DNA of 64,000 bases from Lysobacterales bacterium (lineage in GTDB: Bacteria; Pseudomonadota; Gammaproteobacteria; Xanthomonadales; SZUA-5), in contig JALHMH010000008.1 in assembly GCA_022844165.1 (NCBI GenBank), positions 73,834 to 137,833 on the forward strand, read 5' to 3'. The notes under the pieces are model-generated. The model saw nothing but the letters and a program-made list of their open reading frames with translations. It had not been told where the DNA came from and did not search any database. Positions within the stretch are counted from its first letter, which is position 1. Every line of letters begins with the position of its first letter. The translations under genes and the position numbers were made by a program. Shown in pieces: positions 5,721 to 59,863 of the stretch.

Positions 5721-5726
5721 CGGCAC

Positions 5727-7516: not shown

Positions 7517-7529
7517 TGTCGGTGTCCGT

Positions 7530-11618: not shown

Positions 11619-12184
11619 GCGACTACTCCAATGGCCTGCTCCAGACACGCGCGCAATCGTTTGCGCGCGCGAAACAGGCTGTTCTTGACCGTTCCTTCGG
11701 GTAATCCCGTCATTTGGCTGATCTCGCCGATTCCCAACTCGTCGAAATGATAAAGACTGATCAGCGTTCGCTGCACGGGAGGTAGCGCTTCGACCGCGGC
11801 GGAAACGGCGGCGCCGAGCTCCGCATCGGCATAAGCATCGGCGAAGTCGAAGTCGTCGGCAATTCGCGTCAGCGGATCCTCCGACGAACTGTCTATGCGA
11901 TGATCGTCGTTGACAGGCAGCTGTTTTCGTTGCAAATGGCGGGTCGCCAGCGAGAATGCGATACGCCCGATCCAGGTCGCCAGCGAGCTGTCGTACCTGA
12001 ACTGCGACAGCTTTTGGTACACGCGAACGAAGACCTCCTGGCTGAGTTCGCGCGTGTCCTCCGGGTGCCGCACCATACGCTCGACCACATGCCAGACCAG
12101 CCGCTGGTGTTGCCGCACCAAACGATCGAACGCACCCGGGGCATATGCCAGTGCTGCTTCCACCAGAGTGCGGTCATCGTTCAT
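11615..12184 (-). CDS. ECF sigma factor (RpoE-like)
   Basis: AFDRLVRQHQ, SQEVFVRVY, GTVKNSLFRAR; start MNDDRTLV inside the long ORF. Confidence 0.92.
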   Translation of the reverse strand: MNDDRTLVEAALAYAPGAFDRLVRQHQRLVWHVVERMVRHPEDTRELSQEVFVRVYQKLSQFRYDSSLATWIGRIAFSLATRHLQRKQLPVNDDHRIDSSSEDPLTRIADDFDFADAYADAELGAAVSAAVEALPPVQRTLISLYHFDELGIGEISQMTGLPEGTVKNSLFRARKRLRACLEQAIGVVA

Positions 12185-22037: not shown

Positions 22038-22543
22038 CGCGCAGCGCTGAGTTCGCCCAACCACGCTTTGGCGCGTTTCCAGTCGCGCTGCACCGTGCGC
22101 ACATCGACGTCCAGAATATCGGCCGTTTCTTCTTCGGTGTAGCCGGCAAAAAAGCGACACATGACCACTTCTGCGAGGCGCGGTTGGATCTCGGCGAGCG
22201 CCTTTAGCGTCTGGTCCATTTCGACCAGACGTTCGGCATCCAGCTCCGGTGCCAGCGCGACAGGGTCATGATCGTCCGTTGCCGCAGTCTGCCGGACGCT
22301 ACGGCGTCGCGCATCGTCGATCAGAATTTCGCGCATTGCTCGAGCTGCCAGCCCAAAGAAGTGCTTCCGATCCACCGCAACGGCGCTGCGTTCGCGGCTC
22401 AGCTTCAGGTACACCTCGTTGACCAGAGCTGTAGTCGCCAGCGTTTCGCCATGCGGCATACGCCGCCGCGCGGCATGCGCAAGGGTGCGCAGCTCATCGA
22501 TGAGCGGTGCCAATGTTGCGGGGTCGGAGTCGAAGAAGCTCAT
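22034..22543 (-). CDS. Kinase-associated ECF sigma factor (ECF43/EcfK-like)
   Basis: TLATTALVNEVYLKL, AARAMREILID, RTVQRDWKRAKAWL. Confidence 0.92.
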   Translation of the reverse strand: MSFFDSDPATLAPLIDELRTLAHAARRRMPHGETLATTALVNEVYLKLSRERSAVAVDRKHFFGLAARAMREILIDDARRRSVRQTAATDDHDPVALAPELDAERLVEMDQTLKALAEIQPRLAEVVMCRFFAGYTEEETADILDVDVRTVQRDWKRAKAWLGELSAAR

Positions 22544-30078: not shown

Positions 30079-32814
30079 TCAACGCGACCTGGCCAGCTCC
30101 GCGCGCAGCCAACGGCCATCGGCGCCGGCGTTTTGAATGAGCTCGCGCGCCATCGCGAGTGCTTCCGTGCGCGCCGCGCCTTCGCTGCGCATGCCGCGCG
30201 CGTAGTGCCAATGCGCGCGCGCCAGCGGCGATAACTCATCGATATCCGGGTACTTCTCGAGCAGCGCATCGACGCGTTCGGCATCGCCCGGTGCGCCCCG
30301 TTTGGCGAGCGTGGCCATGAGTTGAATCGCCGCTGCAATACGCGTGGAGTTGCGTGGCGGCAGTTGCATGTCCAGTTGCTCGTCGCCCGCAGTGAGCAGG
30401 TCCACGGCGCGATCCAAATGCCCGGCCAGACGCTCGGACGTGCCCTCGTTGACGTCTTGAAAAGCGAGCTCCAGTTTTGCGCTGGGCCCGAGCGCCGCGT
30501 AGCCGGCGCGTGCTCGTTCGCGCGTCGCGCGCGACTCGCTGTGACGCCCGAGCGCGGCAAGGGCGTTTGCCATGGCTGCCAGGCGCAACCACGTTTGAAT
30601 GTGCTGCGGACCCTGGCGCTGCTCGGTGAACTGGTGCGCCTGCGCGAACCAGTCCAGGGCTTCTTCGGGCTGGTCGCGGTCCATTGCCAACATACCCAAC
30701 ATGAAGAGGCTCTCGCCCAATTCGGCATATCTCCCCTTGGCCTGGATCGCGCGCGCGGCGTCGGTGAGTGTGCGGGCTTGCTCGAGTTGCCCGAGCTGTC
30801 GGTACACCGAGCCCAGGCGCTGCAGCGCTGCCGCATAGCGCGGGTGATTCTCGCCAACTTCGATGCGCAATATGTCGCGCATACGTTGGTAGTGCACCAG
30901 GGCTTTGTCGTAATGGAAGGTGTTACGCTCGATATCGCCGAGATTGAGCAGCGGAAAGAGCAGAATGGCATGGTTCGCGCCGCGCGCCTTTTCCAGAATG
31001 CGCAGCGCACGTTCGCCGTTCTGACGGGCCTCATCGTATTGGTTCATGCGTGCCAGAAAGCCCGCAAGATTCGACAGGCGCAGTGCCGTATCGGCATGTT
31101 CCGGGCCACGGATCTTCTCGAAGCTGGCGATGACCTGACGCATCAGTTCGACCGCTTCGGCGTAACGCGTCTGCGCAAAGCGGACGCGTGCGAGTTGCGC
31201 GTCGAGACCGGCGATCTTCAGATCGTGATCGCCTGCGGCCTGCGCGTAGATGGCGCGGGCCCGAGCGATGTCGGCCTCAGTCTCGGCGAAGCGTCCGAGC
31301 TGAAATCGCGCAGCAACGCGGGTCATCAACGCATCTGCCAGGCGCGGATCGGCGCCATAGCGTTGCTCGCGGAACGCGATGATTGCGTTGATGCGCGTCA
31401 GTTCTGGATCGTTGCCGCCCAGGCTGATTTCCAGGTCGGCCAGATCGCCAACAACGGCATCGCGTAGCTCTTCGTCGCCGGCAAGTTCGCGCTCCGCGCT
31501 GTCGATGCCGGTGCGCACGAGCTCAAGCGGCGTTCGCGCTTTTTCGCCACTTCGGTTGATGCCGTCGCTTTCGCCAAAGATCTGAATCACGAAGTCCTTG
31601 ACCTTGTGCGCTCGCTCGGACTCCGCTTTAGCGCGCGCAGCCTCGGTCCGTGCAATCTGCGCTTGCTGCTCGGCGCGCCGCGCCTCGATCAGCGCCAGTG
31701 CGCTGCCGGCGATCAGCGCAACCGCCGCCAACAAGGCGAAGGCGGCGGCATACCGATGGCGGGCCAGGAATTTGGCCAACAGATAGCGTCGCGTCGGGCG
31801 CCGCGCTTGCACCGGTTCTTTGCGTAAAAAACGGTCGATGTCGTCGCTCAAGGCCATCACGCTGGCGTAACGTCGTTGCGGTTCGGCGCGCAGCGCGCCA
31901 GCCACGATGGCATCGAGATCGCCACGCAGCGTCTGCGCGGGGTAGGGAAGGCCCACGCCAGCGGCCTGGCTCACGCGCTGCGACTCTTCGGTATCGATTG
32001 ATGCAACCAGCGCCAATGCGGACCCGGTGCGGCTTTCCGGCAGTCGTCCTGCGACCAGCTCGAACAACATCAGGCCCAGCGCATACACATCCGTCGCAGT
32101 CGACACCGGTTCGTTGCGCAACTGCTCGGGTGCTGCATAAGCGGGCGTCATCGACGCGAGCGTGGACTCGTGCTGCGTCTCGTCCAGGAGCTTGGCGATA
32201 CCGAAGTCCAGGAGTTTCGGCTCATGGTCGGGATTGACCAGAACATTGCTCGGTTTGAGATCGCGATGCACGATCAAATGACGATGCGCAAAAGCCACCG
32301 CAGCACAGATTTTTTGGAACAGACGCAATCGTTCGATCAGGCTGCGGCCGTTTGCCCACTGCGTGAGGACAACGCCCGGCACGTATTCGATCGCCATCCA
32401 CGGTGCACCGCGTTCATCGACACCCGCATCGATAAAACGCGCAATGCCAGGATGCTCAAGGCGCGCCAGGATCTGCCGTTCGGCGCGCAGTTTTGCGCGA
32501 AAACGCTCGGTGTCGACGCGCAGGCGTTTGATCGCTACGTGCTGAATCACCGCGCCATCGCGGCGTTCGCCCAGCCACACCTCGCCCATGCCCCCGCTGC
32601 CGATGCTGCGGATGCAAAGCCAGGGACCCAATTGCTGATTGCCAGCTGCGGACGGCGCAGCAGAACTCAAACCTTCGGCGACCCGCGCAAACGCCAGCAA
32701 GCGCTGCACTTCCGGCAGTGCGCGCAACGCTTCGGGCAGGCTCTCCGGATCGATCGGCTCACCCGCGCCGATGCGCTCAACCAATTGTTCAAAGGTGATC
32801 GTTGTTTGCGTCAT
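30079..32814 (-). CDS. Ser/Thr kinase with TM and TPR repeats (no adjacent ECF)
   Basis: GSGGMG, VAIK, HRDLKPSN, DFG, YAAPEQ; kinesin-light-chain-like TPRs (GPEHADTA, GENHPRYA). Confidence 0.93.
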   Translation of the reverse strand: MTQTTITFEQLVERIGAGEPIDPESLPEALRALPEVQRLLAFARVAEGLSSAAPSAAGNQQLGPWLCIRSIGSGGMGEVWLGERRDGAVIQHVAIKRLRVDTERFRAKLRAERQILARLEHPGIARFIDAGVDERGAPWMAIEYVPGVVLTQWANGRSLIERLRLFQKICAAVAFAHRHLIVHRDLKPSNVLVNPDHEPKLLDFGIAKLLDETQHESTLASMTPAYAAPEQLRNEPVSTATDVYALGLMLFELVAGRLPESRTGSALALVASIDTEESQRVSQAAGVGLPYPAQTLRGDLDAIVAGALRAEPQRRYASVMALSDDIDRFLRKEPVQARRPTRRYLLAKFLARHRYAAAFALLAAVALIAGSALALIEARRAEQQAQIARTEAARAKAESERAHKVKDFVIQIFGESDGINRSGEKARTPLELVRTGIDSAERELAGDEELRDAVVGDLADLEISLGGNDPELTRINAIIAFREQRYGADPRLADALMTRVAARFQLGRFAETEADIARARAIYAQAAGDHDLKIAGLDAQLARVRFAQTRYAEAVELMRQVIASFEKIRGPEHADTALRLSNLAGFLARMNQYDEARQNGERALRILEKARGANHAILLFPLLNLGDIERNTFHYDKALVHYQRMRDILRIEVGENHPRYAAALQRLGSVYRQLGQLEQARTLTDAARAIQAKGRYAELGESLFMLGMLAMDRDQPEEALDWFAQAHQFTEQRQGPQHIQTWLRLAAMANALAALGRHSESRATRERARAGYAALGPSAKLELAFQDVNEGTSERLAGHLDRAVDLLTAGDEQLDMQLPPRNSTRIAAAIQLMATLAKRGAPGDAERVDALLEKYPDIDELSPLARAHWHYARGMRSEGAARTEALAMARELIQNAGADGRWLRAELARSR

Positions 32815-32908: not shown

Positions 32909-34903
32909 TCAATCGCCGATGCCGAGTTTCTTGCGAATCGCGGCGGTGTTGTAGCGCCGATCGCCACGGATGACGGTCGATACTTTGCGCAGGTCGCTGA
33001 TGTCGACGGAAGGGTCGCCATCGACAAGAATCATGTCGGCGACCATCCCGGGGGCGATTTTGCCGTACCGATCACTTTCGCCCATGACCCTCGCGGCATC
33101 CCAGCTGGCGATGCGCAGTGCGTCGGCTGGGGGAATGCCTGCGCTGACGTACAGCTCCAGTTCTCGCTGTAGCGCCCAAACCGGCGTGGCATCTGTGCCC
33201 GCCACGATTTGCACGCCAGCACGATGCACCACGCCGACAATATCGATCATGCGCTGATACGACAGTTTGTAATGCCGATCGTTGCTGGCATCGGTGGGTA
33301 AACCGCCCGTCGCGGCGCGGATCGCGCGTTGCCAGGTGGGTGGCAGGCTGCTGATGCTGGTGGTGAAGGTTGGCCCCATTCTGCCGGGGCGATCCAGGAA
33401 CAAACCCTCGAATGTCACCAGGGTAGGATCGATGACTGTGCCCTTGTCCTTCATCAGCGCAATCAGGCGGCGCACCGGCGAGCCGGTCAATGCAACGCCA
33501 TATGCATTCTGTGCGACCACCGTAAAGCGCTGCGGTGTGCGCGTGTCGACGGTTGGGCCCGCCAGGAAATTGAGAAACAGAAAGTTCGCATGCTGCAATT
33601 CATCGGCGCCCTGAGCAATGAACTGTTCCGCATTCATGCCCTGCGGAACGTGGCCTGAGAGCCTCAGTCCGCGTGCCTTTGCCGTTTGCGAAATGATCGG
33701 CACGAGTTCAGGCTTCAGCGAACTGTAGACCTTGATTTGGCGATACCCTGCGTCGGCGTAGTCATTGACCGCCTTGATCGCTTCCGCCTCGGTATCGGCA
33801 AACACTTTGGTCGGGCCAGCGTAGGGACCGCGACCATCGATGAAACCAGCTCGTACGATACGCGGACCAACATCCTCGCCGTCTTCGATGGCGCGTTCGA
33901 GTGCGTCGAGTGCGGATTGTTCGTTGGCCATGTCGCGCACGCTGGTCACACCGCTCATCAGGTGCAGCATCCCATCCGAACCGGCGCTGATGTGCACGTG
34001 CATATCCCAGAGGCCCGGCATCAGGAACTGCCCCTTCGCATCCAGAATCTCTGCCTTGGGTGGGGCCTCGATGTTCGGGCCCACGGCAGCAATCTTGCCA
34101 TCGGCGATGAGCACGGATTGCGGATGGCTGACAGTCTTGTGCTCGGCATCGAAAACGCGCGCATTGGCGATCAGGAGGGGTCGACGGATCCACAGCGTCA
34201 GATCTTGAGCTCGCACCTTTGCCAGCCGAGCCTCTTCGCTGCGCTGTCGCTCTCCGATCGTCTCAAGCGCATCTTCATAACCCTCGCGCACAAGTGAAAA
34301 CCAGGGCGACCAAGACGCGAACATCTCCTGATCGCCGTCCAGCCAGATCAGTGCCGGCATCATGTCCAGACCTTCGATGGCATACAGCGCAACACGCCTC
34401 CGCTGCTTGCCTGAGCCAACCTTGGTATCGCCAATCTTGCGCACGTGCGCCTGTCCGGAAGGCAACAGCGGCAAAGGCTGCTGGCTGTTGGCTAATGCGG
34501 CACGGGCCAACATGGCCAGGTCTTCGGGTGTCCCTTCGAGCGACAGGTAAAACGCATCCAGTTGATCGCTTGATTCGTCTTCCGCCGAGTTTCTCCATTG
34601 CGCGCGGGTATCGTCGCGATGAAACGACTCGTCGACCGGCGATTTCATGTAGCTGACCCCGCGGATGCGGAGCGAGCGCTGCAGGCCGCGTTCGTCGACG
34701 CGGTACTCGCCGTCGAGATTCGGGCCGCGGCCGCGATCATTGAACTCGTAGTGCACGACGCGCGTCAGCGGATCGGGCCGCTCGATCAGCATATGGCCCG
34801 ATGCTTTGCCCATGGTCAGCATGGTGTAGCGCTGATTTTCTGCCAATGCGCGCGTTGATGTGAGCGTCAGAGTGGCGGCCAGCAGGAACCATGCAGCGCG
34901 CAT
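32909..34903 (-). CDS. Secreted amidohydrolase-family protein
   Basis: Signal peptide, PGLWDMHVH, GVTSVRD, AGTDA, ADMILVDGDP. Confidence 0.9.
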   Translation of the reverse strand: MRAAWFLLAATLTLTSTRALAENQRYTMLTMGKASGHMLIERPDPLTRVVHYEFNDRGRGPNLDGEYRVDERGLQRSLRIRGVSYMKSPVDESFHRDDTRAQWRNSAEDESSDQLDAFYLSLEGTPEDLAMLARAALANSQQPLPLLPSGQAHVRKIGDTKVGSGKQRRRVALYAIEGLDMMPALIWLDGDQEMFASWSPWFSLVREGYEDALETIGERQRSEEARLAKVRAQDLTLWIRRPLLIANARVFDAEHKTVSHPQSVLIADGKIAAVGPNIEAPPKAEILDAKGQFLMPGLWDMHVHISAGSDGMLHLMSGVTSVRDMANEQSALDALERAIEDGEDVGPRIVRAGFIDGRGPYAGPTKVFADTEAEAIKAVNDYADAGYRQIKVYSSLKPELVPIISQTAKARGLRLSGHVPQGMNAEQFIAQGADELQHANFLFLNFLAGPTVDTRTPQRFTVVAQNAYGVALTGSPVRRLIALMKDKGTVIDPTLVTFEGLFLDRPGRMGPTFTTSISSLPPTWQRAIRAATGGLPTDASNDRHYKLSYQRMIDIVGVVHRAGVQIVAGTDATPVWALQRELELYVSAGIPPADALRIASWDAARVMGESDRYGKIAPGMVADMILVDGDPSVDISDLRKVSTVIRGDRRYNTAAIRKKLGIGD

Positions 34904-34967
34904 AACGATCCTTGATCGAAAAGACACGCTGCAAGATCGGCGCGCGCGGCTGGCGCGTCAAGTGCCT

Positions 34968-35972
34968 TCAAGGCGCACAGTCGACGTTGGCGCACACGGT
35001 GACGCGGACCTGGCCCCGATCCTCGTAGGCGAAGACGGGGCGACCATCGGTGCGCAGTGCGAGCGACGGATTGTCCCCGCGCTCCGGTGCCGGATCGGGT
35101 GTGCGCAGCGTGGTCGTTGCGCAAGCGACATCGGCGCACACGCGCAGCGAAATGCCATTCACGCTGCGATAGGCGACCCTGGGATAGCCGTCGGCGGCGA
35201 ACGCGATATCCGTTCCGGTATCGGCGTTTCCAGTGCCCAGGACAACCGAAGTGCCGGTCTGGCAGATGCCCAAACCGCCTGCGCAACGAAGCACTCGGAT
35301 GGTGCCGGTTTGGTCGCGATACGCCAGCGTGCCGATGCCATCTGGCGCCATCGCTGAGGATAGCCCGCCGTAGATGCCGACAGCCAATCGGTAGGTTTCA
35401 TCCACCGAGCACGCGTTGTTCAAGCAAACCACTGCTTCGAGATCAACTACGTTTGCGGAGAAACTCAGCGGCAAGCCTGTAGCGCTGACGATAGCGGCCA
35501 GCGGTGCGACGATTTCCCCGTCGGCCCTCAATCCGTGCCAGGTCGAACTCGTACAACCGCGATCTACGCAATCTTCGCCGGTGATCCGGAAGGCGATCTC
35601 ACTGTGGACGAACCATGGAAGCTCGGACGAACGAAGGACCAGGGCGACGCCCGAACCTGCATTGAACGAACCAACATCGACGGCCCGCAAACTGCCGTTG
35701 GCGCAGGTTTCGTCGCTACAGTCGAAGCCGTACAAGTCTTCGCCGATCGCGTCGCGATAGGCGATCAACGCGGTGTCGTCGGCGCGCAATACCAGATCGA
35801 TAGACCCCTCGAAGGCTGCGCCGACCGCATCGATGGTCCGCACGATGGCGGTGGCGCAGGTTGCATCACCGCAGGTTGCCAGCTTGATCTCATCGGTGTC
35901 GGCGTCATAGAACGCGGTCACTGGCCGCCCGTCGCTGCGCAACACCAGCTTTGGCCACAGCCCCGAATCGTC
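34968..35972 (-). pseudogene. 5'-truncated beta-propeller-like repeat protein
   Basis: Repeats of L-x-x-DG-x-P-x-x-A-Y/F...C-x-D-x-x-C; starts mid-repeat with no signal peptide or RBS. Confidence 0.65.
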
Positions 35973-36105: not shown

Positions 36106-36235
36106 ATGAGCAAAAGCACAAACGCATCGCGGCATCCTGGGCTGTCAGTCTTTAGATGCTCACGCGAAATCCGGAAAAACTTCGCCACTCCCGAAGCGAT
36201 CTTGCGAGCGTTGTAACCGCTTTTGCCATGGCAAC

Positions 36236-37660
36236 CTACTCGAACCCATTGCTGAGCAGGTCTTGCTGGACGCCGAGTCGAATCAGTCGGACGCGGCCGT
36301 TGGCGAGGCTGTCGGTCAGCAGCAGCGGGCGTCCGGCGGCATCGACGGTGATGTCGAATATCCGTGGTGTGTCGAGCCCATCGAGTCGCGGGCAGAAGTC
36401 GTAGTCGCACGCGCCGCGGCGATCGAGTCGCGAGACCAACATCCGGTTGTCTTGCGGCGTGCCGCCGTTGAGTTCGGCAACGCCGCCCAGCAGCACTCGT
36501 CCGCCGGGTGTGGCGTACAGGCTCTTGATCTCGGTGGTCAGCGCCGGATTGGTGGTCGTCACCGAGCGAAATCCACCCGGTCCGAATTCGGCTGCGAGCG
36601 GACCTTCTTCTCTTAGTGCGACGATATGGCCGTTGCCGAACGTGGCCGAGTCCTGCACGGCGACGAAAATCCGGTTTGTCGCCGCGACGATCGCGCTCGC
36701 AAGGCTGTTGTTGGCGACGCCGATCTGTGCGGCGGTCAGCAGATGCTGGAAGCCGGCGCTGTTGCCGCAGCTCGATGCATCGGCGCAGAAGCTGCCGTCG
36801 GTAACGCCGGTGCTGGTCAGCCGGGCGATGCCGAAGGTCTTCACGCCGTCGCGGGTCCAATCGCCGAGGACCACCAGCCGGCCGCTTGGGTCCAGCGTCG
36901 AGCGCGCGAAAAATGCCAGGCCGGTGCCGGGAAAACTCACGCTGGCATAACCCGCGAATCCGTAGCTGGTATCGATCGTGCCGTTCTCGGCGTTGACACG
37001 GAGCACGCCCACCGAGCGCTCGCCGCTGGCGCCGCGGCGGTCGGCGACAACGTAAAGCAGCTCGCCGATGGCGTGCAAGCCGTAGACCGTGCCGCCGGTG
37101 GTTCCGCCGAAGTCTTCGAATCGATAGCCGGCGCAACCGCCGGCCGCAAAATTCGGATCGAGCTGGGCGGTTGGGGTGATGCTGCACAAGCGCAAGCGTG
37201 GGCTGCCATTGAACTGATCGCTTCCGAGAACGAAGATCCGATCGAATACGGTGATCGTTGGGCCGACGTTGCGCTGCCAGCGCGTGTAGGCGAAATGGAC
37301 CACCGAATCCATGCTCACGGCCGTAACCGCTTTGCCGATGCCGAAGGAGCCATAGGTGGTGTCCAGCAGGCCACTGTTGGTGAATCGCGCGGTCGCCACC
37401 GCTCTCGACACGCCGGTGACCGGGTCCGGGTTGTATGCGGTCATGACCCAATAGCGCGGTGCTTCGAATATCGTGCGTCCTGGTACTTCAACGACTTTCC
37501 GGCCGATGCCGACCGAGCCGGGCAGGGTGTCGAATTGCAGGGAGAAATCGTGGATCCCGTTGGCGTTCGGGCCGAACTGGATATCGAAACTGCCATCGTC
37601 GGCCATCGCCGTCGCAACGCAAAACGCGAACCAGAGGCCTACGCAAAAACGAATGATCAT
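36236..37660 (-). CDS. Secreted delta-60-like repeat protein with C-terminal DLLSNGFE
   Basis: Signal peptide; repeats GLLDTTYG, QLDPNFAAGG, GTIDTSYG, GVTDGSF. Confidence 0.85.
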   Translation of the reverse strand: MIIRFCVGLWFAFCVATAMADDGSFDIQFGPNANGIHDFSLQFDTLPGSVGIGRKVVEVPGRTIFEAPRYWVMTAYNPDPVTGVSRAVATARFTNSGLLDTTYGSFGIGKAVTAVSMDSVVHFAYTRWQRNVGPTITVFDRIFVLGSDQFNGSPRLRLCSITPTAQLDPNFAAGGCAGYRFEDFGGTTGGTVYGLHAIGELLYVVADRRGASGERSVGVLRVNAENGTIDTSYGFAGYASVSFPGTGLAFFARSTLDPSGRLVVLGDWTRDGVKTFGIARLTSTGVTDGSFCADASSCGNSAGFQHLLTAAQIGVANNSLASAIVAATNRIFVAVQDSATFGNGHIVALREEGPLAAEFGPGGFRSVTTTNPALTTEIKSLYATPGGRVLLGGVAELNGGTPQDNRMLVSRLDRRGACDYDFCPRLDGLDTPRIFDITVDAAGRPLLLTDSLANGRVRLIRLGVQQDLLSNGFE

Positions 37661-37793
37661 GATCGGGGACCGTGCCGTGAAGGGTACTGTCCGCTCTCGT
37701 AATCGGGCGCCGAAGACTGACATCGCCGTTCGGACGCCGCGGTCGCTCCGATATGATGACCGCCGCCAGGCGAGCGCCACGCACGGGATGCAA

Positions 37794-38315
37794 ATGACGG
37801 ACGCCACACTGCAGGCATTGGTCTATCGCGAGCTCAAGCAGCTCGCTCGACGCGCGCTCAAGCCCTTTGCGATGCACGAGACGCTCAATACCACTGCTCT
37901 GGCGCATGAGGCCTACGTCAAGCTCGCGCAGCACGCCGCGCGGCATGCGATGGCGCCGGAGCATCTTCGCGCCCTGGTGGCGCGTACCATGCGCCAATTG
38001 CTGGTCGATCGAGCGCGCCGCCGGTTCAGCGAAAAACACGGTGCGACTGCGTTGGCGCCGCCGGCATCAGCGGAGCCGGGCGATCTGCAGTTCGACGGCC
38101 AACCGATCGACATCGTGCTGGTCGATGACCTGCTGGTACAGCTCGCCGCGCTCGATCGCCGCCAGGCGGAGATCGTGGAGCAGCATGTGTTCGGCGGCAT
38201 GAGCTTTGCCGAGATCGCGAACCTGCATCAGCTGACCGAGCGCACCATTTTTCGCGATTGGCGCAAGGCGCGGGCATTCCTGATCGCACGAATGGATGGT
38301 CTGGCGTCGCCGTGA
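37794..38315 (+). CDS. Kinase-associated ECF sigma factor (ECF43/EcfK-like)
   Basis: VYRELKQLA, TLNTTALAHEAYVKL, RTIFRDWRKARAFL; alternative ATG at 37788. Confidence 0.92.
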   Translation: MTDATLQALVYRELKQLARRALKPFAMHETLNTTALAHEAYVKLAQHAARHAMAPEHLRALVARTMRQLLVDRARRRFSEKHGATALAPPASAEPGDLQFDGQPIDIVLVDDLLVQLAALDRRQAEIVEQHVFGGMSFAEIANLHQLTERTIFRDWRKARAFLIARMDGLASP

Positions 38316-38377
38316 GGCCAGCCGATTGTCAGTGTTTCTCCCCCGGCGTCGAGAAGGGGACTATTTGAGGTCTGCCC

Positions 38378-41314
38378 ATGGACATTAGCGCGGCCCGGCT
38401 GGCAAACATCGGCGAACACTTCGACGCGCTGCTCGATCTCGATGCGGCCGGTCGCGAGGCTTATCTGCGCGATCTAAACGCCGACCCGGCATTGGTGCGG
38501 GAACTTCGCGCGATGCTGGCGGCGGACGCGCAGCCGCTGGATCTGGCGGCCGCCGTGGCGCAAGCGTATGCCGATGTGACGCAACCGATCGGCACGGCGG
38601 AGGACGCGAATCCCGATCCCGCACAGTTCGGCCCGTGGATCGTCCGCGGCGTTCTTGGGCGAGGCGGCATGGGTGTGGTGTATGAAGTCGAGCGCGAGTT
38701 CGAGGGTTCGTGGCAACGAGCGGCGCTGAAGCGCATTCGTGGCGGCGTGGATCGAAGCTCGGCGCTCGCGAGATTCGCCATGGAGCGCAGCATTCTGTTG
38801 CGCCTGCAGCATCGCAACATCGCCGCATTCCTCGACGCGGGCGCTGAGGCCGACGGCACGCCGTGGCTGGTGATGGAACGTATCGATGGTGTTCCGCTGC
38901 TCGATTGGTGCGCACAACGCCAGTGCGGGATCAAGGAACGCGTGCGATTGTTCGCCCAGCTCTGCGAAGCGGTGCAGTTCGCACATCAACACTCGGTGGT
39001 GCATCGCGATATCAAGCCGGGCAACGTACTGGTCGACACGACCGGCACGGTGAAACTGCTGGACTTCGGCATCGCCAAGTTTCTGGGTGAGGCATCGCAT
39101 AGCGTGCTCGCGGTGACAATCGACGGGCCGATGACGCCGCAGTACGCTTCGCCCGAACAACTGCGCGGCCAGCCGGCCAGCACGCTGACCGATGTCTACG
39201 GACTCGGCACCGTTCTCTACGAACTGTTGTCCGGCCAACGGCCGTACGCGCGCGCTGGCGACAGCGCGCCCATGGCCTGCGCCCGTGTCTTGAGCGATGA
39301 GCCCTGTCGTCCTCCCAGTGTTGTTGTGCGCGAGACGCGCGAACTTGGCGGCAGCGTCGATTCGCGCGGGCTGCGTGGCGATCTGGACGCCATCGCGCTG
39401 CGGGCGCTCGCCCGCGAAACCGATCGCCGTTTTGGCAGTGTCGACGCTCTGCTCGACGATCTGCGCCGCTATTTGTCCGGGCATCCGGTTCGCACCCGCG
39501 GTAACGCCTGGCACTATGTGTTCGGTCGCTTCCTGAGCCGGCATCGGGCGGCCTCCGCCGCGGCCGGCGTCGTATTGTTTGCGCTGATAGCCACCAGCAT
39601 CGTTTCCTGGCAAGCGGCCGAGAAGGCGCGTCTGGAAGCCGAACGAGCGGAAGCCGCGCACGCTTTTTTGCTGTCGCTGTTCGACGCTGCCGATCCGATG
39701 CGCGAGGGCTTCAAACTGTCGGCGCTCGATATCGTCTCCGCTGGCGCGCAACGCCTGGCGTCTGGTTATGCCGAACAGCCCGAAGCGCGGGCCGAAGCGG
39801 CACTGACCATCGGCACCATTTTAGGTCGACTGGGTGACGCGAAAGGGGCGGTGGAGCAGCTGGCCTGGGAAGATACGGTGAGCTTGCCGGGCAGCGAGCG
39901 TCGGGCGGGCGATCGTTTGACCTTTCTTGCGCTCGCGCAGTTGCAACTGGGCGAACTGGCGGCAGCCGAAAGCGCCGCCAAGCGCGCACTCGACATCGGC
40001 ACCGCAGCGGATCGACCGATGGCCACGGCGCGGGCGCTGAGCCTGCTCAGCGAGATCGCTCGCCAACGCGGCGATCGACAAACGGCCGTGGCGTTGGGGG
40101 CGCGCGCGGCGTCGTTCGCGCGTCGCAACGAGGCGTTGCCGGAGGCGGTCGATGTCTTGTTCCAATACACCAATGTGCTGCGCGAGAGCGACGACATCGG
40201 CGCGGCAAGAGACGTTGCAGAAGAGGCTATCGCCATCTGCGCGACAGCACCGGTCGCCTGCGGTTATCGATTGCCGAAAGCGCGCATTCAACTGGCGCCG
40301 CTGCAACTCAAGGTGGGCGATATCGATGGCGCCCGAATCGGGCTGGAAACCGCGCTCGCCGAAGCCGAGCAGTGGCTACCGCCCTCGCACCCGATCCGCA
40401 TCGACGCGCTGTCCCTGCTGGCGCGAATCGAGGGTGATCTTGGGCAGCACGAAACCGCCATCGAACACGCCAAAGAAGCGGTCGACCTGCAGCGCAGGAT
40501 CGGCAGCAAAAGCGTTCTCCTGGGCGGTTATCTCAATGCACTGGGCGGGCGCTATTCGGCGGCCGGTCGCGAGCACGATGCGCTCGCCAGTTATCGCGAA
40601 TCGGTGGCGCATTTCGAAGCCATCGGTCAATCCGATCACCCCTACGCGCTGGCGGCGCTCGGCAATCGTGGTTCCGTATTGGCCAGGCTGGCGCAGTATC
40701 CCGACGCCTTGGCCGATTCGGCCGCCGCGTACTCGGCCTCGCAGCGCGTCTCCGGTCCGGAAGCGCTCACCACCTTGGCCAAGGGCGTGCAGCTGATGCG
40801 AATTCGCGCCCAGGCCGGCGAAAAGGATCTTGCCCGCGAACTCGCGCAAACGCTTGCCCAATCGTTGATCCGGCAGCGGCAGCAGGCGCCGATGCTGGTC
40901 GATCTCGCCATCCCAGTGAGCGTATTGCTCGCTGGCGAGGACGAGCACCAGGCGGTGCTGGACCTGTCCGGCCTGGCTCTCGAAGGGCTGCGTTCGCGAT
41001 CGCAACCGCAACCTCTTCGAGAGAGCGAGGTGCTCAGGCGCCAGGCCGACGCGCTGCGCCAGATCGGACAGTTGCCGGCCGCCATCGCCAGCGCAAACGA
41101 GGCGCTCGAACTGGCGCTGGCCGCCGATCCCGATGGCAGCGACCAGCGCACGCCTGCCGCACGGATCGCGCTGGCGCAATGTCTGGCCCAATCGGGCAAC
41201 TTGCCGCGCGCCCGCGAGTTGCTGAGAACCGCCATCGCCGAACTGCGCGCCACCGAAGATGGCGACAGCCCAAGAATCGCCGCCGCGACGGCGTTGCTGG
41301 ATTCGATACGGTAG
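38378..41314 (+). CDS. Ser/Thr kinase with TM and TPR sensor
   Basis: GRGGMG, AALK, HRDIKPGN, DFG, YASPEQ, TM, TPR-like repeats. Confidence 0.93.
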   Translation: MDISAARLANIGEHFDALLDLDAAGREAYLRDLNADPALVRELRAMLAADAQPLDLAAAVAQAYADVTQPIGTAEDANPDPAQFGPWIVRGVLGRGGMGVVYEVEREFEGSWQRAALKRIRGGVDRSSALARFAMERSILLRLQHRNIAAFLDAGAEADGTPWLVMERIDGVPLLDWCAQRQCGIKERVRLFAQLCEAVQFAHQHSVVHRDIKPGNVLVDTTGTVKLLDFGIAKFLGEASHSVLAVTIDGPMTPQYASPEQLRGQPASTLTDVYGLGTVLYELLSGQRPYARAGDSAPMACARVLSDEPCRPPSVVVRETRELGGSVDSRGLRGDLDAIALRALARETDRRFGSVDALLDDLRRYLSGHPVRTRGNAWHYVFGRFLSRHRAASAAAGVVLFALIATSIVSWQAAEKARLEAERAEAAHAFLLSLFDAADPMREGFKLSALDIVSAGAQRLASGYAEQPEARAEAALTIGTILGRLGDAKGAVEQLAWEDTVSLPGSERRAGDRLTFLALAQLQLGELAAAESAAKRALDIGTAADRPMATARALSLLSEIARQRGDRQTAVALGARAASFARRNEALPEAVDVLFQYTNVLRESDDIGAARDVAEEAIAICATAPVACGYRLPKARIQLAPLQLKVGDIDGARIGLETALAEAEQWLPPSHPIRIDALSLLARIEGDLGQHETAIEHAKEAVDLQRRIGSKSVLLGGYLNALGGRYSAAGREHDALASYRESVAHFEAIGQSDHPYALAALGNRGSVLARLAQYPDALADSAAAYSASQRVSGPEALTTLAKGVQLMRIRAQAGEKDLARELAQTLAQSLIRQRQQAPMLVDLAIPVSVLLAGEDEHQAVLDLSGLALEGLRSRSQPQPLRESEVLRRQADALRQIGQLPAAIASANEALELALAADPDGSDQRTPAARIALAQCLAQSGNLPRARELLRTAIAELRATEDGDSPRIAAATALLDSIR

Positions 41315-41515
41315 ATTTCCGCGTCATGAGTGTTGTAGCTGAATCGTGATCCCTTCGTGGAACCGGTGCTTTTCGTCGCCAGGGCAGGCGGCGATGGTAG
41401 CGCAGGTACTGCGACAAATCGGCATCCCCCATTCATGGGACGACACTCAGCAGCGCCGATTGGACAATTTTCCTGTTGCTTTACGCGACGCTTCCTATCC
41501 CTGCTGAGAACAACG

Positions 41516-43489
41516 ATGACCGTGTTATCGATGCTGCGCCGTGGCGCATTGTGCCTGTGTTTTCTCGTATCCATCCCCGGCCAGTCGCATGCCGCGGTCG
41601 ACGAACTGCCCACGCAGGTGCTGGCGTCCATCGCCGCGCGTGAGTACCACGCGAGCGTGCATGCCAACGAACTTCAAGCGCCGAACCGAGCGCAGGGTTT
41701 TCGCACCAGGTTCCGCGACCACGGGGTCGAGCTTGTCGACCGGGATCAGGCGGCGCAGCCGCTGCTTCGCCTGAGCCTCGTGCAATGGGGCCGAGTCGAT
41801 CGCCTGCAGTCGGCCGAACTTGGCGTTCTCATTGCGGATGGGGTTCGCGTCGAACGCCGCAGCAAGTCGCTGACCGAGTGGTATATCAACTCCTCGGACG
41901 GCCTCGAACACGGCTTCGATCTTGCCCACTCGCCGCCCGGTCGCGGCGAACTTGAGTTTCATCTGCAGAGCGATCGTCCAGCGCATCTGGTGCACGCCGA
42001 TCTGATCGAATTCGGCAGTGGCGACGACAAGCTGCGCTATAGCAAACTCAAGGTATGGGACGCTGACGGCCGAATCTTGCCGGCGCACATGCGCGTGAGT
42101 GGTACGCATCGTGTGGTGATCCGTGTCGACGATGCCGGCGCACGCTATCCGGTCACGATCGACCCGCTGCTGCAGCGCGCTGCCGACATCGTCCGCTCCG
42201 GAACCCAGAGCGGCGCTCAATTTGGGGTTCGCATTGCCAACGCCGGCGACGTGAACAACGACGGGATAGACGATTTGGTCGTCGGTGCCTTCCTCTGGGA
42301 CAACGGCCAAACCGACACCGGCGCGGCGTTCGTTTACACCGGTCCGAGTTTCAATAACCCCGTCTTACTGAGCCTGACCCAAGCGGGGGCCGCTTTCGGC
42401 GGCGGCGTCGGCGGTGCCGGCGATTTGAACAACGATGGTTTCGACGATGTCGTGATCGGCTCACCAAGCTTCGATGGCGCCGCAGGCACCAACTCGGGCG
42501 CGGCCTTCGTGTACTTCGGTGGTTCGGGCGCCTTCGATCCCACGGCCGATGCGACCATCAGCTCGCCGTTGTCGGGGGCGAACATGGGCTCTGCGGTGCG
42601 CGGCGTGGGCGATGTGAACGGCGACGGGATCGATGATCTTGCGGTCGGTTTGTCGCGTTACAACCCCGGCGGCAGCCCCGACCAGGGCGCGGTCTTCATC
42701 TACTACGGCAGCACTAATTTCAACTCGACATCGGATGCGTTGCTCACCCTCAACCAGATGTCCGTCAATGCGGGCGCCGCGCTTGCCGGTGGCGATGTCA
42801 ACGACGACGGAGTCTCCGACGTGATCGTTGGAGCGCCAGGTTATGAGTCAACGAGCGCTCTGGTCAATGAAGGCGCGGCGCTGGTGTTCTTCGGGGGCTC
42901 CGGCGCGATCGACACGACGGTCGATGCCATTCTGCGCACAGCCCGGGCCAACGCCGCAGGCGGTAGTTCGGTCGCGACGGGCGACTTCAATGGCGACAAT
43001 ATCGATGACGTGATCTCCGGTGCCCCTCTGAATTCCGTAGCGATCAGCGAAGGCGGGACGGCGCAAATCTGGTTCGGTGGAACCGGTCCCTTCAATACCC
43101 TGGTCGATGTCACGTTTTTCGGCAATGCGGACTCTGAGGACCTCGGTCGTAGCGTCGCCGCCTTGCCCGACTTCAACGGCGACAACCGAGACGAGATTGT
43201 GGTTGGCGCGCCCGGTGCTGCCAACGCCAGCGGGCTGATCAGCGGCGCAGTCAAGCTCTACTTCTCCGCACCGAACGGATTCTCCTCCAACCCCAGCCTG
43301 GTGCTGCTCGGCACACAGACCAGCGACATTTTCGGCACCACAGTGGCGACCGGACGCTTCAACAGCGACGCCCTGTACGACGTCGGCGTTGGCGAGCCTG
43401 GCGTCGACATCAGTCCGGGCGCAAACAATGGTGCCTTCCGTCTCTATTTTGGCCAGAGCAACGATGTCTTTCGAAACGGATTCGAGTAA
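41516..43489 (+). CDS. Secreted FG-GAP (integrin-alpha-like) repeat protein with C-terminal DVFRNGFE
   Basis: Signal peptide, N-domain ending YPVTIDP, about seven GDxNxDGxDDxxxG repeats. Confidence 0.9.
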   Translation: MTVLSMLRRGALCLCFLVSIPGQSHAAVDELPTQVLASIAAREYHASVHANELQAPNRAQGFRTRFRDHGVELVDRDQAAQPLLRLSLVQWGRVDRLQSAELGVLIADGVRVERRSKSLTEWYINSSDGLEHGFDLAHSPPGRGELEFHLQSDRPAHLVHADLIEFGSGDDKLRYSKLKVWDADGRILPAHMRVSGTHRVVIRVDDAGARYPVTIDPLLQRAADIVRSGTQSGAQFGVRIANAGDVNNDGIDDLVVGAFLWDNGQTDTGAAFVYTGPSFNNPVLLSLTQAGAAFGGGVGGAGDLNNDGFDDVVIGSPSFDGAAGTNSGAAFVYFGGSGAFDPTADATISSPLSGANMGSAVRGVGDVNGDGIDDLAVGLSRYNPGGSPDQGAVFIYYGSTNFNSTSDALLTLNQMSVNAGAALAGGDVNDDGVSDVIVGAPGYESTSALVNEGAALVFFGGSGAIDTTVDAILRTARANAAGGSSVATGDFNGDNIDDVISGAPLNSVAISEGGTAQIWFGGTGPFNTLVDVTFFGNADSEDLGRSVAALPDFNGDNRDEIVVGAPGAANASGLISGAVKLYFSAPNGFSSNPSLVLLGTQTSDIFGTTVATGRFNSDALYDVGVGEPGVDISPGANNGAFRLYFGQSNDVFRNGFE

Positions 43490-43565
43490 GTGCGCCGGTG
43501 AAACCGGCGGAGTGCCAGGATGAGAGTCTTCGCCAACAAAGGTGGGATCGAACATCGATTCGGTC

Positions 43566-57328: not shown

Positions 57329-59863
57329 TCATCCAGGCGTCGACGATCGGTCGCCAGGGAGGCTTTCACGATCACCCTGCCGCATGGCTGCGATGTCTTT
57401 TTGCAGACGGAGCAGGGTTGGACTGGCTGGTTCAAGCAGACCTAGAACGGCTTCCTGTAGCAACAAGTAGCGCAGGCTGCCGCGGCGTCCTTCTGGAATC
57501 TTCGCGAGTGCGGCGCGCAGTGCGCTGCGCCGGCCTTCGGTCAGCACGCCCATCTGCTGCAGAATGGCTGCCAGTTCGCTTGCCCGCAGTAGTTGGTCGA
57601 TAGATGGCCGGTCGATGGCGTAGATGGCGTTCAGCGTTTGCTCCAACTGCGTCGTTGACGGCTTACCGGCAGCCGCACCTTGCCAGCGCAGCATCAGATC
57701 GACGGCCTGCAGCTCCGGCAAAGCGACGCCAGCGCACTCCTCGTGGTTCAAACACTGGGCAACCTGTGCGCGCCAGGGCACATACGCGGCTGGACCATCC
57801 TCTGCGATACGCGCGGCATGCAGAGCAGCACGCGCAACCCGATTTTCTGCAGACACGTTGCTGCCATCAATCTTCAGGCGGTCAAGCGCAAGTTCTAGTG
57901 CCGTCTGCATGTGTGTCCTGGCCAGAGCCAGTCGACCGAGATCGAGTGCCTGCAGTGCCGTCTGGTAGTGGATTTCTGCCTCGAAAACGAGTTTGGCGGC
58001 GTTGCCGTGCACGCCCGCATCGAAGTTGCTGATTGTCTCCAGGGCCTTCTGCTGGCTGGCCCAGGCGGCGTGACTTCGGCCAAGCTCGGAATACACCAGC
58101 GCCTTCCATGACCAGGCGTTGGCCAGTTCCATGCGGTTAGCTTCGGAACCGGCCTCCACCAGACGCTGCTTGATCGCGATGCACTCCTCAAAAAACGCCA
58201 GCGCCCGCTCCCAGCGATGGCGGCCGTGCTGGGTCTCGAGCGTCCCCAGGTTCAGCAGAGCATTGGCGAGTTGACGTTCGCCATCTTCCGGAGCATCCGA
58301 GTAGGCGATCACCTGACGCGCGTGCCACAGATGCTGCTGCCAGTGAGCCTCGGTTGCATCGAGGTCTTGCCGTTGGCGGCTGATGCGACCGAGGCGAAAC
58401 GCCACATCGCTGGCCACCGAATGGGTCTGAGGATCGCGGCTCGACAAGGCCCAGGGCCGCAACTGTTCCGCGGCCAGGCGCAAGCTTTGCTCCGCTGCCT
58501 CAAACTGATTGCGCGGCAGTTGTACGCCGGCAATCGTCCGGTAAGCGCGTGCGCGGCGCACGGCAGACTCCTCGTTGCCGTCGATCGGCTCCTTCGCCAA
58601 GTACGCCAGGGCTTCCTGGCCGACAGCATCCAGCAGATCGAGGCGGCCAATGGGGCGCAACCGATCATGCAGATCGCCAAGCATGAACTGCACCAGTCTC
58701 TCGGCGTCCTGGCGTCGTTGCTCGGCCAGACGCTGGGCGACCTCGGCGGCATCGCGACCGGCGCGCGCCTCTTCCATGCCATACAACGCCAGCACCATAC
58801 CCACCAGCAGCGCCAACAAGACCGCACCGCCGGCGACGCTGGCTAACGCGTTGCGGCGCAAGAAGCAACGCAGTGTGTAAAGCTTGCCACCGCCCATCGC
58901 CTGCACCGGTTCGCGTGCCAGCCAGCGCTGCAAATCCTCGGCCATCGCCGCCGCCGAGTCGTAACGCGCCTCGCGTGCCTCGGCCATGGCCTTAAGCGCG
59001 ATTGCGCGCAACTCCGGTGGCAACTGCGCCAGTTGCCGCGTACGGCTCGTGTCAAAACGCAGCGCCAGACTGCCAGCCAATTCGCCGCGCCAGTAGGTAG
59101 AGGTGCATTGCTCGGCGACCATCGTCAACCCGACCAACTGATAGAGGCACTCCGCAAGCACCGCGCCGAGCGCATAGACATCACTGCGCACGTCGATGCC
59201 TTCCGGGCCAGGACGTTTCTGTTCCGGCGACATATAGGCATCGGTGCCGGCAACGCGTGACGTGCGCGTGCCGGGCTGGCGGATCTTCTCGGTGCCGATG
59301 GCGATGCCGAAGTCGATGATCTTGGGCTGCGGCACGCCATCAGCCAGGTGCACCACAATATTGCGGGGTTTGATGTCGCGGTGAATCAGGCCGCGCTGAT
59401 GGGCGTGCGCGATGCCATGGCAAACTTCGATCAGCAGCCGTGCAAGCAGTTCTGGACTGGCTTTGTGCTGGCGCAGGAAAAGATGCAAGGGCTCGCCGGG
59501 GACGTACTCCATCGCAAAGAACAGCGAGCCATCGGGCAGTCGCCCGGCATCGTAGATCTGCGCCACAGCGCGATGGCTCAGTCGCGCCAAAGCCTGGCGC
59601 TCGATCTGGAAAAAGGCCTCGGCAAGCGGCTCCTGCAAGGCATCCAGCATGACCTTGATCGCCACTTCGCGGACAAAGGGATGCTGCTGCTCGGCCAGCC
59701 ATACCAGTCCCATGCCGCCTTGACCGAGCCGACGCCGGAGCACAAAAGGTCCCACCTTCTGACCCGCCGACCATTGGCCGGCCGATGACGGCATAGCCGA
59801 CCAGTCCTGCACCAGAGCATCGTTGTGCGTCCAGGCCGCTGTGGGTGCAGGCGTATTCGTCAT
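57329..59863 (-). CDS. Ser/Thr kinase with TM and TPR-like sensor (no adjacent ECF)
   Basis: GQGGMG, VAIK, HRDIKPRN, DFG, YMSPEQ, TM, FMLGDLHDRLRPIGRLDLL. Confidence 0.92.
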   Translation of the reverse strand: MTNTPAPTAAWTHNDALVQDWSAMPSSAGQWSAGQKVGPFVLRRRLGQGGMGLVWLAEQQHPFVREVAIKVMLDALQEPLAEAFFQIERQALARLSHRAVAQIYDAGRLPDGSLFFAMEYVPGEPLHLFLRQHKASPELLARLLIEVCHGIAHAHQRGLIHRDIKPRNIVVHLADGVPQPKIIDFGIAIGTEKIRQPGTRTSRVAGTDAYMSPEQKRPGPEGIDVRSDVYALGAVLAECLYQLVGLTMVAEQCTSTYWRGELAGSLALRFDTSRTRQLAQLPPELRAIALKAMAEAREARYDSAAAMAEDLQRWLAREPVQAMGGGKLYTLRCFLRRNALASVAGGAVLLALLVGMVLALYGMEEARAGRDAAEVAQRLAEQRRQDAERLVQFMLGDLHDRLRPIGRLDLLDAVGQEALAYLAKEPIDGNEESAVRRARAYRTIAGVQLPRNQFEAAEQSLRLAAEQLRPWALSSRDPQTHSVASDVAFRLGRISRQRQDLDATEAHWQQHLWHARQVIAYSDAPEDGERQLANALLNLGTLETQHGRHRWERALAFFEECIAIKQRLVEAGSEANRMELANAWSWKALVYSELGRSHAAWASQQKALETISNFDAGVHGNAAKLVFEAEIHYQTALQALDLGRLALARTHMQTALELALDRLKIDGSNVSAENRVARAALHAARIAEDGPAAYVPWRAQVAQCLNHEECAGVALPELQAVDLMLRWQGAAAGKPSTTQLEQTLNAIYAIDRPSIDQLLRASELAAILQQMGVLTEGRRSALRAALAKIPEGRRGSLRYLLLQEAVLGLLEPASPTLLRLQKDIAAMRQGDRESLPGDRSSTPG

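Follow-up and report, generated by a model that had tools for sequence, protein, structure and literature searches.

A short C-terminal GFE tail on exported proteins and its association with ECF43 sigma factor/Hanks kinase modules in a Lysobacterales genome

Two tail-bearing exported proteins around an ECF43/kinase pair

The window analysed here is a stretch of 64,000 nucleotides from the genome of a Lysobacterales bacterium (assembly GCA_022844165.1, contig JALHMH010000008.1, positions 73,834 to 137,833), and positions within it are counted from its first letter. We describe a locus of this window at which the genes of two unrelated exported proteins with the same short C-terminal end, here called the GFE tail, flank the genes of an extracytoplasmic function (ECF) sigma factor and of a receptor kinase, and we follow the tail and its gene neighbourhood through this genome and those of its relatives. 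The first tail gene (36236..37660, minus strand) encodes a secreted delta-60/DUF5122-like beta-propeller protein of 474 amino acids from its likely start, referred to as D60-like, which ends in LLSNGFE-stop. It lies divergent from the gene of an ECF43-type sigma factor (37788..38315, plus strand; 175 amino acids from MQMTD; TIGR02999, PF07638), and the intergenic region between the two (37661..37787) comprises 127 bp. The gene of a transmembrane Hanks Ser/Thr kinase with Pkinase and TPR domains (38378..41314, plus strand, 978 amino acids) begins 63 bp past the sigma factor stop on the same strand. It is followed after 201 bp, again on the same strand, by the gene of a secreted FG-GAP beta-propeller protein (41516..43489, plus strand, 657 amino acids) with the end VFRNGFE-stop. 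The sequence-only reading of this DNA had described just this order, in which tail genes bracket the ECF and kinase genes with one divergent and one downstream.

The open reading frame (ORF) of the D60-like protein (36236..37807, minus strand) has the C-terminal sequence RLGVQQDLLSNGFE-stop, in translation GVQQDLLSNGFE, with the tail codons at 36239-36259 and the stop codon at 36236-36238. From the likely start at 37660 the protein begins with the signal-peptide-like N-terminus MIIRFCVGLWFAFCVATAMADD, and the corresponding gene call of the genome (C8:110069-111493) is positive in the signal peptide heuristic. The ORF of the FG-GAP protein (41357..43489, plus strand) ends with YFGQSNDVFRNGFE-stop, in translation GQSNDVFRNGFE. 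Its tail codons are located at 43466-43486, and its N-terminus from the likely start at 41516, MTVLSMLRRGALCLCFLVSIPGQSHAAVDE, is likewise signal-peptide-like. A C-terminal hydrophobic anchor is absent from both proteins on inspection of the sequences, and the earlier description of two exported proteins with the same NGFE end and no transmembrane anchor thus holds for translation, starts and hydrophobicity. The folds are unrelated. The D60-like protein matches PF17164 (DUF5122) with 37.7 bits (2.5e-09, Pfam) and delta_60_rpt (TIGR02608, NCBIfam) with 42.4 bits, which is below the cut-off of 76.5, and the FG-GAP protein matches FG-GAP in six stretches with 127.9 bits (9.7e-38, Pfam). Both tails, D-L-L-S-N-G-F-E and D-V-F-R-N-G-F-E, fit the class D-x-[LVI]-[FL]-x-[NDS]-G-F-E. 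No Pfam or NCBIfam model matches the tail, and no NCBIfam sorting-domain match was obtained for the window proteins. In an AlphaFold2 model of the FG-GAP protein, built on an alignment of 13 rows with a mean pLDDT of 77.6, residues 648-657 have values below 50 and lie past the last propeller strand. The tail is therefore to be seen as an appendage outside the propeller fold.

The sigma factor exceeds the cut-off of TIGR02999 (132.4 bits against 126.15, NCBIfam) as well as that of PF07638 (95.2 bits against 21.1, 5.9e-27, Pfam). Its region 2.2, read directly against the published consensus, has LNTTAL at the ECF43 phospho-Thr site and is devoid of an acidic DAED-like motif (HETLNTTALAHEAY). According to PMC13147305, in whose alignment 343 Xanthomonadales members were used, a QTTA phospho-acceptor consensus replaces the acidic residues in region 2.2 of ECF43 proteins; ECF43 sigma factors are also described in PMC8999054. 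The kinase comprises an N-terminal extension of about 90 amino acids, the kinase domain (residues 91-294, Pkinase 1.5e-40), one hydrophobic, presumed transmembrane segment (around residue 390-415) and, on the periplasmic side, a TPR region that spans about 550 amino acids (residues ~425-978, window 39650-41311; TPR_12 in five stretches). This is the layout of PknS-type kinases, that is an N-terminal extension, a Hanks kinase domain, a single transmembrane helix and periplasmic TPRs. For PknS of Xanthomonas citri PMC13147305 gives an N-terminal extension, a transmembrane segment and periplasmic TPRs, and states that the activating signal is unknown.

Due to the score above the TIGR02999 cut-off, the adjacent kinase gene, the LNTTAL sequence and the PknS layout, the pair is of a known kind: judged by its sequence it is an EcfK/PknS-type ECF43 module and not new. 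It shares with EcfK/PknS of X. citri and EcfP/PknT of Vibrio parahaemolyticus both a TIGR02999/PF07638 sigma factor with Thr-Thr-Ala in region 2.2 and a neighbouring Hanks kinase that spans the membrane and has an N-terminal extension as well as TPRs in the periplasm. X. citri also belongs to the same taxonomic order as the present bacterium. From family membership we infer that the kinase phosphorylates the Thr in region 2.2 of the sigma factor here as well. The genome contains 24 ECF and about 46 kinase paralogues (phmmer). The TPR region of the window kinase is fast-evolving: only five relatives are found at E<=1e-20, and among 24 genomes (23 relatives and the present one) an orthologue of this domain at E<=1e-30 is found only in one other genome, G001 of the same genus.

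The GFE tail in this genome and among relatives

The genome (G000; 4.68 Mb in 59 contigs) was covered with a codon-likelihood gene caller made for this analysis, which yielded 3800 genes with a coverage of 89%; signal peptides were likewise called heuristically. The tail is not rare: in a search of the kind that the sequence-only reading had suggested, its GFE turned out to be the most frequent C-terminal tripeptide of this proteome. GFE ends 63 of the 3800 called genes (NGFE 38, DGFE 14, SGFE 8), and the next commonest C-terminal tripeptide, AAA, ends 23. In the 63 tails, D occurs 29 times at position -9; position -7 is occupied by L (31), V (17) or I (7), 55 in total, and position -6 by F (47) or L (11). 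A follows 35 times at -5 and N (38), D (14) or S (8) at -4, before the invariant G, F and E. The consensus is D-x-[LVI]-F-A-[N/D/S]-G-F-E-COOH.

Amino-acid composition alone would yield 0.05 copies of the motif [LIVMF]2-x-x-GFE at 3800 C-termini and 18 copies over all positions. In fact 99 copies were counted, 57 of them at the exact end and 18 within 1-4 residues of it, so that the motif is strongly, though not solely, terminal. Among stop-to-stop ORFs of at least 100 codons, 59 end in [LIVMF][LIVMF]xxGFE, and a lax rule assigns a signal-peptide-like N-terminus to 57 of these. By a second rule signal peptides were assigned to 42 of the 63 tail genes, compared with 1170 of 3800 genes genome-wide, so that the enrichment in exported proteins, on which the earlier proposal depended, is indeed present. 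LFxNGFE was also observed directly after a signal peptide, or between domains and ahead of P/T/S-rich linkers, at C7:45785-46312, C17:80260-81213, C37:10374-12179, C41:24767-27022, C1:104777-107656 and C17:27890-30187.

Pfam searches with 40 of the 63 tail proteins revealed FG-GAP, DUF5122, S8, M12B, endonuclease I, CotH+LTD, beta-helix/NosD, BNR/sortilin, He_PIG/Big/PKD (Ig/PKD), Calx-beta, LVIVD and DUF7452; for 15 of the 40 no Pfam family was found. The DNA pattern for F-A-N-G-F-E-stop has 25 matches in this genome, its reversed control none. The tail codons vary synonymously (TTC/TTT, GCC/GCG/GCA, AAC/AAT, GGN, GAA/GAG) and all three stop codons are used, which indicates that conservation and selection act on the peptide. 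Outside the GFE class the tetrapeptide LVTG ranks second among the C-termini; it ends ten genes of this genome, which may be copies of one mobile-element protein.

Of the 39 relatives searched, 30 contain F-A-N-G-F-E-stop, among them every one of the 22 that belong to the same family. A single genome has as many as 26 matches, and the reversed control has none in any genome. The relaxed pattern F-x-[ND]-G-F-E-stop gives 43 matches in the present genome, 50 in G016, 65 in G036, 45 in G031, 30 in G025, 6 in G026, 4 in G033, 1 in G032, and none in G028, G023 and G034. G033 has 11 F-x-[ND]-G-F-Q-stop matches instead. A strict DNA pattern with N only makes G025 and G033 look poor in tails, which is corrected by the D and Q variants. 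Outside this circle, each of 250 other gammaproteobacterial genomes sampled evenly over the class has at most two matches of F-x-[ND]-G-F-E-stop.

Close homologues of the window FG-GAP protein are encoded by Ahniella sp., Aquimonas sp. and Lysobacteraceae/Lysobacterales and Xanthomonadales metagenome-assembled genomes (MAGs). Among the best 120 FG-GAP homologues, GFE forms the end of 27 and is followed by a short extension in 5, as in GFEPFVPVGAE or GFEQGVP; a few have NGYE, DSFE or NGFQ. Orthologues at 57-98% identity retain the tail, including those at 57-72%. In distant homologues, which stem from Bacteroidota, Ignavibacteria, Eisenbacteria and further groups, the sequence closes with the C-terminal domain (CTD) of the type IX secretion system (T9SS; PF18962), with FlgD-Ig (PF13860), with a dockerin-like sequence or with a PEP-CTERM-like transmembrane segment followed by Arg. 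As these sorting domains are located at the same place, the GFE tail takes the position of known sorting domains. No paper containing LFANGFE, FANGFE, FADGFE, LFADGFE, IFADGFE or IFANGFE was found in a search that left most subscription journals outside. The tail is thus real, restricted to a lineage of water and soil bacteria and, as far as the literature is searchable, undescribed. The orthologue from an Ahniella sp. MAG (locus L043, 5238-7213) is present in two overlapping frames (5238-6755 and 6701-7213), the second of which ends in VFKNGFE; the split is probably caused by a frameshift in a long-read assembly.

Tail genes beside ECF43/kinase modules

Genes of tail-tagged exoproteins are the preferred neighbours of ECF43/kinase modules, and the only gene class with an excess right next to them. 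This is a new and reproducible result. Runs of ECF and/or kinase genes were counted as modules, and the 49 modules of this genome have 95 immediate flanks, 12 of which are occupied by tail genes compared to 1.6 expected (hypergeometric p=2.8e-8). At the second flanks the number decreases to 4 of 94 (p=0.07). The preference is also seen if only signal-peptide-positive genes are considered: tail genes make up 9 of the 38 at module flanks, compared with 42 of the 1170 in the whole genome (p=3e-6). A survey of all paralogue families among the two neighbours on either side of the 63 tail genes (209 genes) leads to the same families: 11 of 40 kinase family members (p=6e-6) and 8 of 23 ECF family members (p=1.8e-5) are located there, and these two are the only enriched families. 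Modules are flanked by near-variants of the tail as well, LFADGFESP on C3 and LLIDSFE on C24.

Eight of the 11 tail-bearing modules are co-directional with their tail gene, either as tail-ECF-kinase or as ECF-kinase-tail, and three divergent arrangements occur, including that of the D60-like gene in the window. The spacing can be very tight: on C32 the tail gene and the start of the ECF gene have 4 nt in common, and on C9 the kinase stop overlaps the start of the tail gene by 1 nt. In the paralogue tree, the eight long kinases that have a tail neighbour are dispersed (8 changes compared to a shuffled mean of 7.4), which, together with the unrelated folds of the neighbours, indicates that this is not one cassette copied many times. 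On C45 a tail gene (5644-8073) is separated from a kinase gene (9554-11935) by a phage-type integrase gene (8595-9557; PF00589, 8.6e-51), which hints that some of the tail/kinase loci are mobile or rearranged.

The link recurs in G016, G036 and G033, which represent three families of the order; expectations in these other genomes are based on Poisson or estimated tail frequencies. Judged only from coordinates and taking G016, G036 and G031 together, a tail stop is located no more than 7 kb from 18 of the 53 ECF genes that score above the cut-off, compared to 7.8 expected, with 9 of 23 in G016 and 8 of 21 in G036. G036, a member of another family, was inspected at 20 ECF loci with 22 modules and 42 flanks. 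Seven flanks carry exact GFE tails (estimated p 3.5e-5, from an estimated tail frequency), and five further flanks carry the near-variants FADSFE, KNGFENP, CSGFEP, ANGFES and RDQFE. In G033, with 15 pattern-defined tails in 5.7 Mb, a GFQ-tail gene directly adjoins 2 of the 8 ECF loci examined (28 ECF matches in the genome). At its locus L125 the last position of the tail gene (9080) is followed directly by the open frame of the ECF gene (from 9081), which is counted from stop to stop and not from the start codon.

In loci L125 (5937-9080; 12394-14814), L126 (7409-9175; 6046-7365) and L128 (12356-14767; 15587-17014) of G033, a genome from another family of the order, the tail has drifted to IFRDGFQ or VFANGFQ, and module neighbours are also found there with the ends LFADRFGPGG, LFADDFDG, IFGDGLEEPPPPP or a PEP-CTERM/IPTL-like transmembrane segment plus Arg. 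Tail and classical anchors appear to be swapped at the same kind of locus.

Conserved synteny of the window module itself could not be supported. The TPR orthologue is confined to the same genus within the 24 genomes, and the FG-GAP orthologue at L043 has other neighbours. At two further loci, L041 and L042, no ECF or kinase match is present in 1.3 kb and 3.8 kb upstream, which is all their contigs span there and too short a stretch for a judgement. Three more paralogous genes of transmembrane kinases with TPRs are encoded in the window (19299-22543, 30079-32814 and 57329-59863, all on the minus strand). The first has its own ECF43 gene, and none of the three is immediately adjoined by a GFE-tail gene.

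Possible roles of the tail and of its neighbourhood

The GFE tail is most likely an address or retention tag that would be read by a component of the envelope, since it is found on many unrelated folds and replaces T9SS, PEP-CTERM-like and dockerin ends. The tail-bearing exoproteins constitute a lineage-restricted exported class with a short, unstructured tail. In the loci described above, the ECF43 sigma factor, the receptor kinase and the tail-tagged exoprotein may form a three-part cassette, in which the Hanks kinase would phosphorylate the Thr in sigma region 2.2 and thereby switch the sigma factor on, as is established for the family, and in which the module would most likely control the expression of the adjoining exoprotein. 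This reading, a local cassette whose module regulates the tail-tagged gene next to it, is the one that we favour, at about even chances. The sequence-only reading had proposed that the tail cargo is controlled or sensed by the kinase-ECF pair. Of this proposal the statistical link is borne out (12 of 95 flanks versus 1.6 expected), and control and sensing are both conceivable directions of it.

A shared ECF promoter, suggested earlier for 37661-37787 and 41315-41515, was not found by k-mer comparison. The upstream regions of the D60-like, FG-GAP and ECF genes have no common k-mer of at least 8 nt except the palindrome ATCATGATC and one 8-mer of the D60-like and FG-GAP regions, CGGCGATG. The palindrome is the source of the only k-mers common to the two divergent reads of 37661..37787. 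Across the genome the best upstream k-mers are GCCGTC in 8 of 24 ECF upstream regions (corrected p ~0.56) and GCGAAC in 9 of 24 (corrected p ~0.8). The k-mer test is crude, and gapped -35/-10 motifs or paralogue-specific promoters would escape it.

Several observations weigh against a tag that is coupled to the modules. When the upstream regions (150 nt) of the 63 tail genes or of the 24 ECF genes are considered, no 6- or 7-mer remains enriched after Bonferroni correction. No receptor or sorting machinery for the tail and no single-copy candidate for it was found. As many as 51 of the 63 tail genes adjoin no module and about three quarters of the modules are without a tail neighbour; the tail-rich G031 has no enrichment (1 of 9 ECF genes versus 1.4 expected). 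In the Ahniella sp. MAG (L043) MoxR/DUF58-like genes and no kinase gene are located upstream of the FG-GAP orthologue. TIGR02999 matches occur in all 39 relatives with 4-34 per genome, tail-poor ones included, such as G028 with 17 ECF genes and no tail or G032 with 22 ECF genes and a single tail. Since ECF43 genes are expanded in tail-poor relatives too, the modules as a family predate the tail and have a broader distribution. Finally, the motif occurs off the end, five times just after the signal peptide, four times 6-60 residues before the C-terminus and, in 15 cases, further inside the protein. Two of the four precede short P/T/S-rich extensions, and several of the internal ones precede P/T/S/G-rich linkers. 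Motifs after signal peptides and between domains are not predicted by a strictly C-terminal sorting signal, and a motif for linear recognition or for processing would account for the non-terminal copies no less well than a classical C-terminal signal. The earlier idea of an undescribed export or attachment signal is hence strengthened by the unrelated signal-peptide folds and the sorting-domain position of the tail, but weakened by the internal copies and by the missing machinery.

The periplasmic sensor domain of the kinase consists of TPRs, a peptide-binding fold, and the input to the TPRs of ECF43 kinases is a question that PMC13147305 itself leaves open for the PknS type. The tail-tagged neighbour might thus be an extracytoplasmic co-sensor or ligand in a three-component sensing system, in which the tail or the whole neighbour docks to the periplasmic TPRs and activates the kinase, much as a transducer in the outer membrane passes its signal to FecR/FecI. 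It would agree with this that tail neighbours are often co-directional and tightly spaced, as on C32, C9 and at L125 of G033, and that, among the scanned tail proteins encoded next to modules, only propellers, Ig-like proteins and proteins of no family are seen, none of them with the protease or nuclease domain of a classical exoenzyme; the module-adjacent tail protein at C8:30594 contains a di-haem cytochrome c peroxidase-like (MauG/RoxA) region. We nevertheless consider such sensing unlikely. A common peptide clamp in the sensor domains had to be rejected, since an alignment of 33 paralogous kinase periplasmic regions revealed no shared basic clamp, and the positions conserved in at least 60% are A/G/P/L positions of the TPR scaffold, H671 and R946. 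An invariant tail would offer no specificity among about 46 kinases, most tail proteins lack an adjoining kinase, and tail proteins, if they leave the cell, could not reach a periplasmic domain. When the TPR residues 425-978 of the window kinase were co-folded with the 40 C-terminal residues of the FG-GAP protein, the score was 0.01 against a mark of 0.32, with the fold of the partner fragment itself uncertain; this value counts neither for nor against docking. The narrower version, in which the tail is a docking peptide by which secreted partners report to the periplasmic TPRs of the ECF43 receptor kinases, appears quite doubtful to us. If it were true, the tail would provide a widespread kinase-to-sigma pathway with its first class of candidate ligands, and would also be a new minimal Gram-negative C-terminal tag of seven residues with no membrane anchor.

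The non-terminal copies, the 18 motifs that are followed by 1-4 extra residues and the FG-GAP orthologues that end at GFE or with a short extension are also consistent with a mark for processing or quality control, that is the site or the product end of an envelope protease or PDZ protein acting in maturation, domain release or degradation. One class of PDZ ligands has an aromatic residue ahead of an acidic C-terminus, and about 12 PDZ proteins are encoded in the genome (Prc-like, tricorn-like, DegP-like, and GspC of the type II system with a weak PDZ). However, 57 of the 99 motifs are already at the exact end, where nothing is left to cut, and among the two neighbours on either side of the tail genes, with all paralogue families considered, neither protease nor PDZ genes are enriched. 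The PDZ protein GspC was tried as tail receptor and rejected: an orthologue is present in tail-less G028, G032, G027 and G038 and was not found with the same query in tail-rich G031, and this phyletic pattern does not track the tail. A role as processing mark is therefore improbable in our view. Still less can be said for the assumption that there is no functional link at all, that tail genes and modules merely share variable regions and that the tail is a neutral lineage-specific habit at domain ends, which we regard as very improbable. Both classes are large, fast-evolving paralogue sets, with the TPR orthologue of the window kinase in G001 only; FG-GAP/kinase synteny is not kept in the Ahniella sp. 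MAG, no promoter motif was found, and an integrase gene separates tail gene and kinase gene on C45. Yet regional clustering does not predict the drop from 12 of 95 first flanks to 4 of 94 second flanks, and the enrichment recurs in three families. A neutral habit would also be at odds with the invariant G, F and E, the conservation at the protein level and the tails kept by orthologues at 57-72% identity.

Taken as an address or retention tag, the tail resembles the PEP-CTERM/exosortase system and the T9SS CTD (PF18962) in that one end is found on many unrelated signal-peptide proteins of a restricted lineage. In contrast to these, it comprises only 7-9 residues with a free Glu end and has neither a transmembrane helix nor a basic cluster nor a folded domain; moreover the motif also occurs in non-terminal positions and no sorting-enzyme gene was found. 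The tail is not a tripartite sorting signal like PEP-CTERM, IPTL-CTERM, LPXTG or GlyGly-CTERM, as the chain stops right after GFE and has no hydrophobic stretch. It is not a T9SS CTD (PF18962/TIGR04183, about 70-100 amino acids) either: none of the 42 tail proteins scanned (2 from the window and 40 from elsewhere) has a PF18962 match, and that domain was found only in the distant FG-GAP homologues from other phyla. With 60-80 exoproteins per genome, such a very small tag would point to an undescribed recognition step in the envelope.

For the gene neighbourhood, too, parallels exist. In the FecA-FecR-FecI system the gene of an envelope protein adjoins those of an ECF sigma factor and of the membrane regulator of this factor, but here the regulator is a kinase and not an anti-sigma factor, and the neighbours are not TonB-dependent transducers. 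A short C-terminal peptide is read in the periplasm by DegS, for which the YxF end of outer-membrane proteins is the stress signal, whereas the window kinase is devoid of a PDZ domain (Pfam). EcfK/PknS and EcfP/PknT control a type VI secretion system or polymyxin resistance, and a secreted partner or a tail is not described for them in the accessible parts of the sources. Here, in contrast, about 49 modules are present in one genome and a quarter of them are located beside the genes of GFE-tail exoproteins. ECF43/Hanks kinase pairs are numerous in Xanthomonadales-like bacteria, and the tail neighbours are a concrete handle on the input of their kinases, since each can be tested as output or as input of its module.

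Window positions 36200-43500 are matched at 90% identity or more by contigs of activated-carbon, freshwater and aquatic DNA metagenomes and of one soil RNA library, and four drinking-water metagenome runs are also listed as matching. In four DNA metagenome runs, contigs stem from strains that are nearly identical to this one. One contig of 2882 nt spans the start of the D60-like gene, the ECF gene and the kinase gene. The soil RNA contigs are short and cover parts of the D60-like and kinase genes; as DNA carry-over is possible, they are no evidence for transcription or co-transcription. On the other side of the D60-like gene, the kinase gene at 30079-32814 is followed by an amidohydrolase gene (32909-34927) and by an ORF at 34968-35945 (minus strand, 325 amino acids) that has no Pfam or NCBIfam match. 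The latter, located between the amidohydrolase gene and the D60-like gene, encodes a Cys-repeat protein, in which each repeat contains a close Cys pair (TCGDATCAT, DCSDETCANG, VCADVACATT) and which ends in VCANVDCAP.

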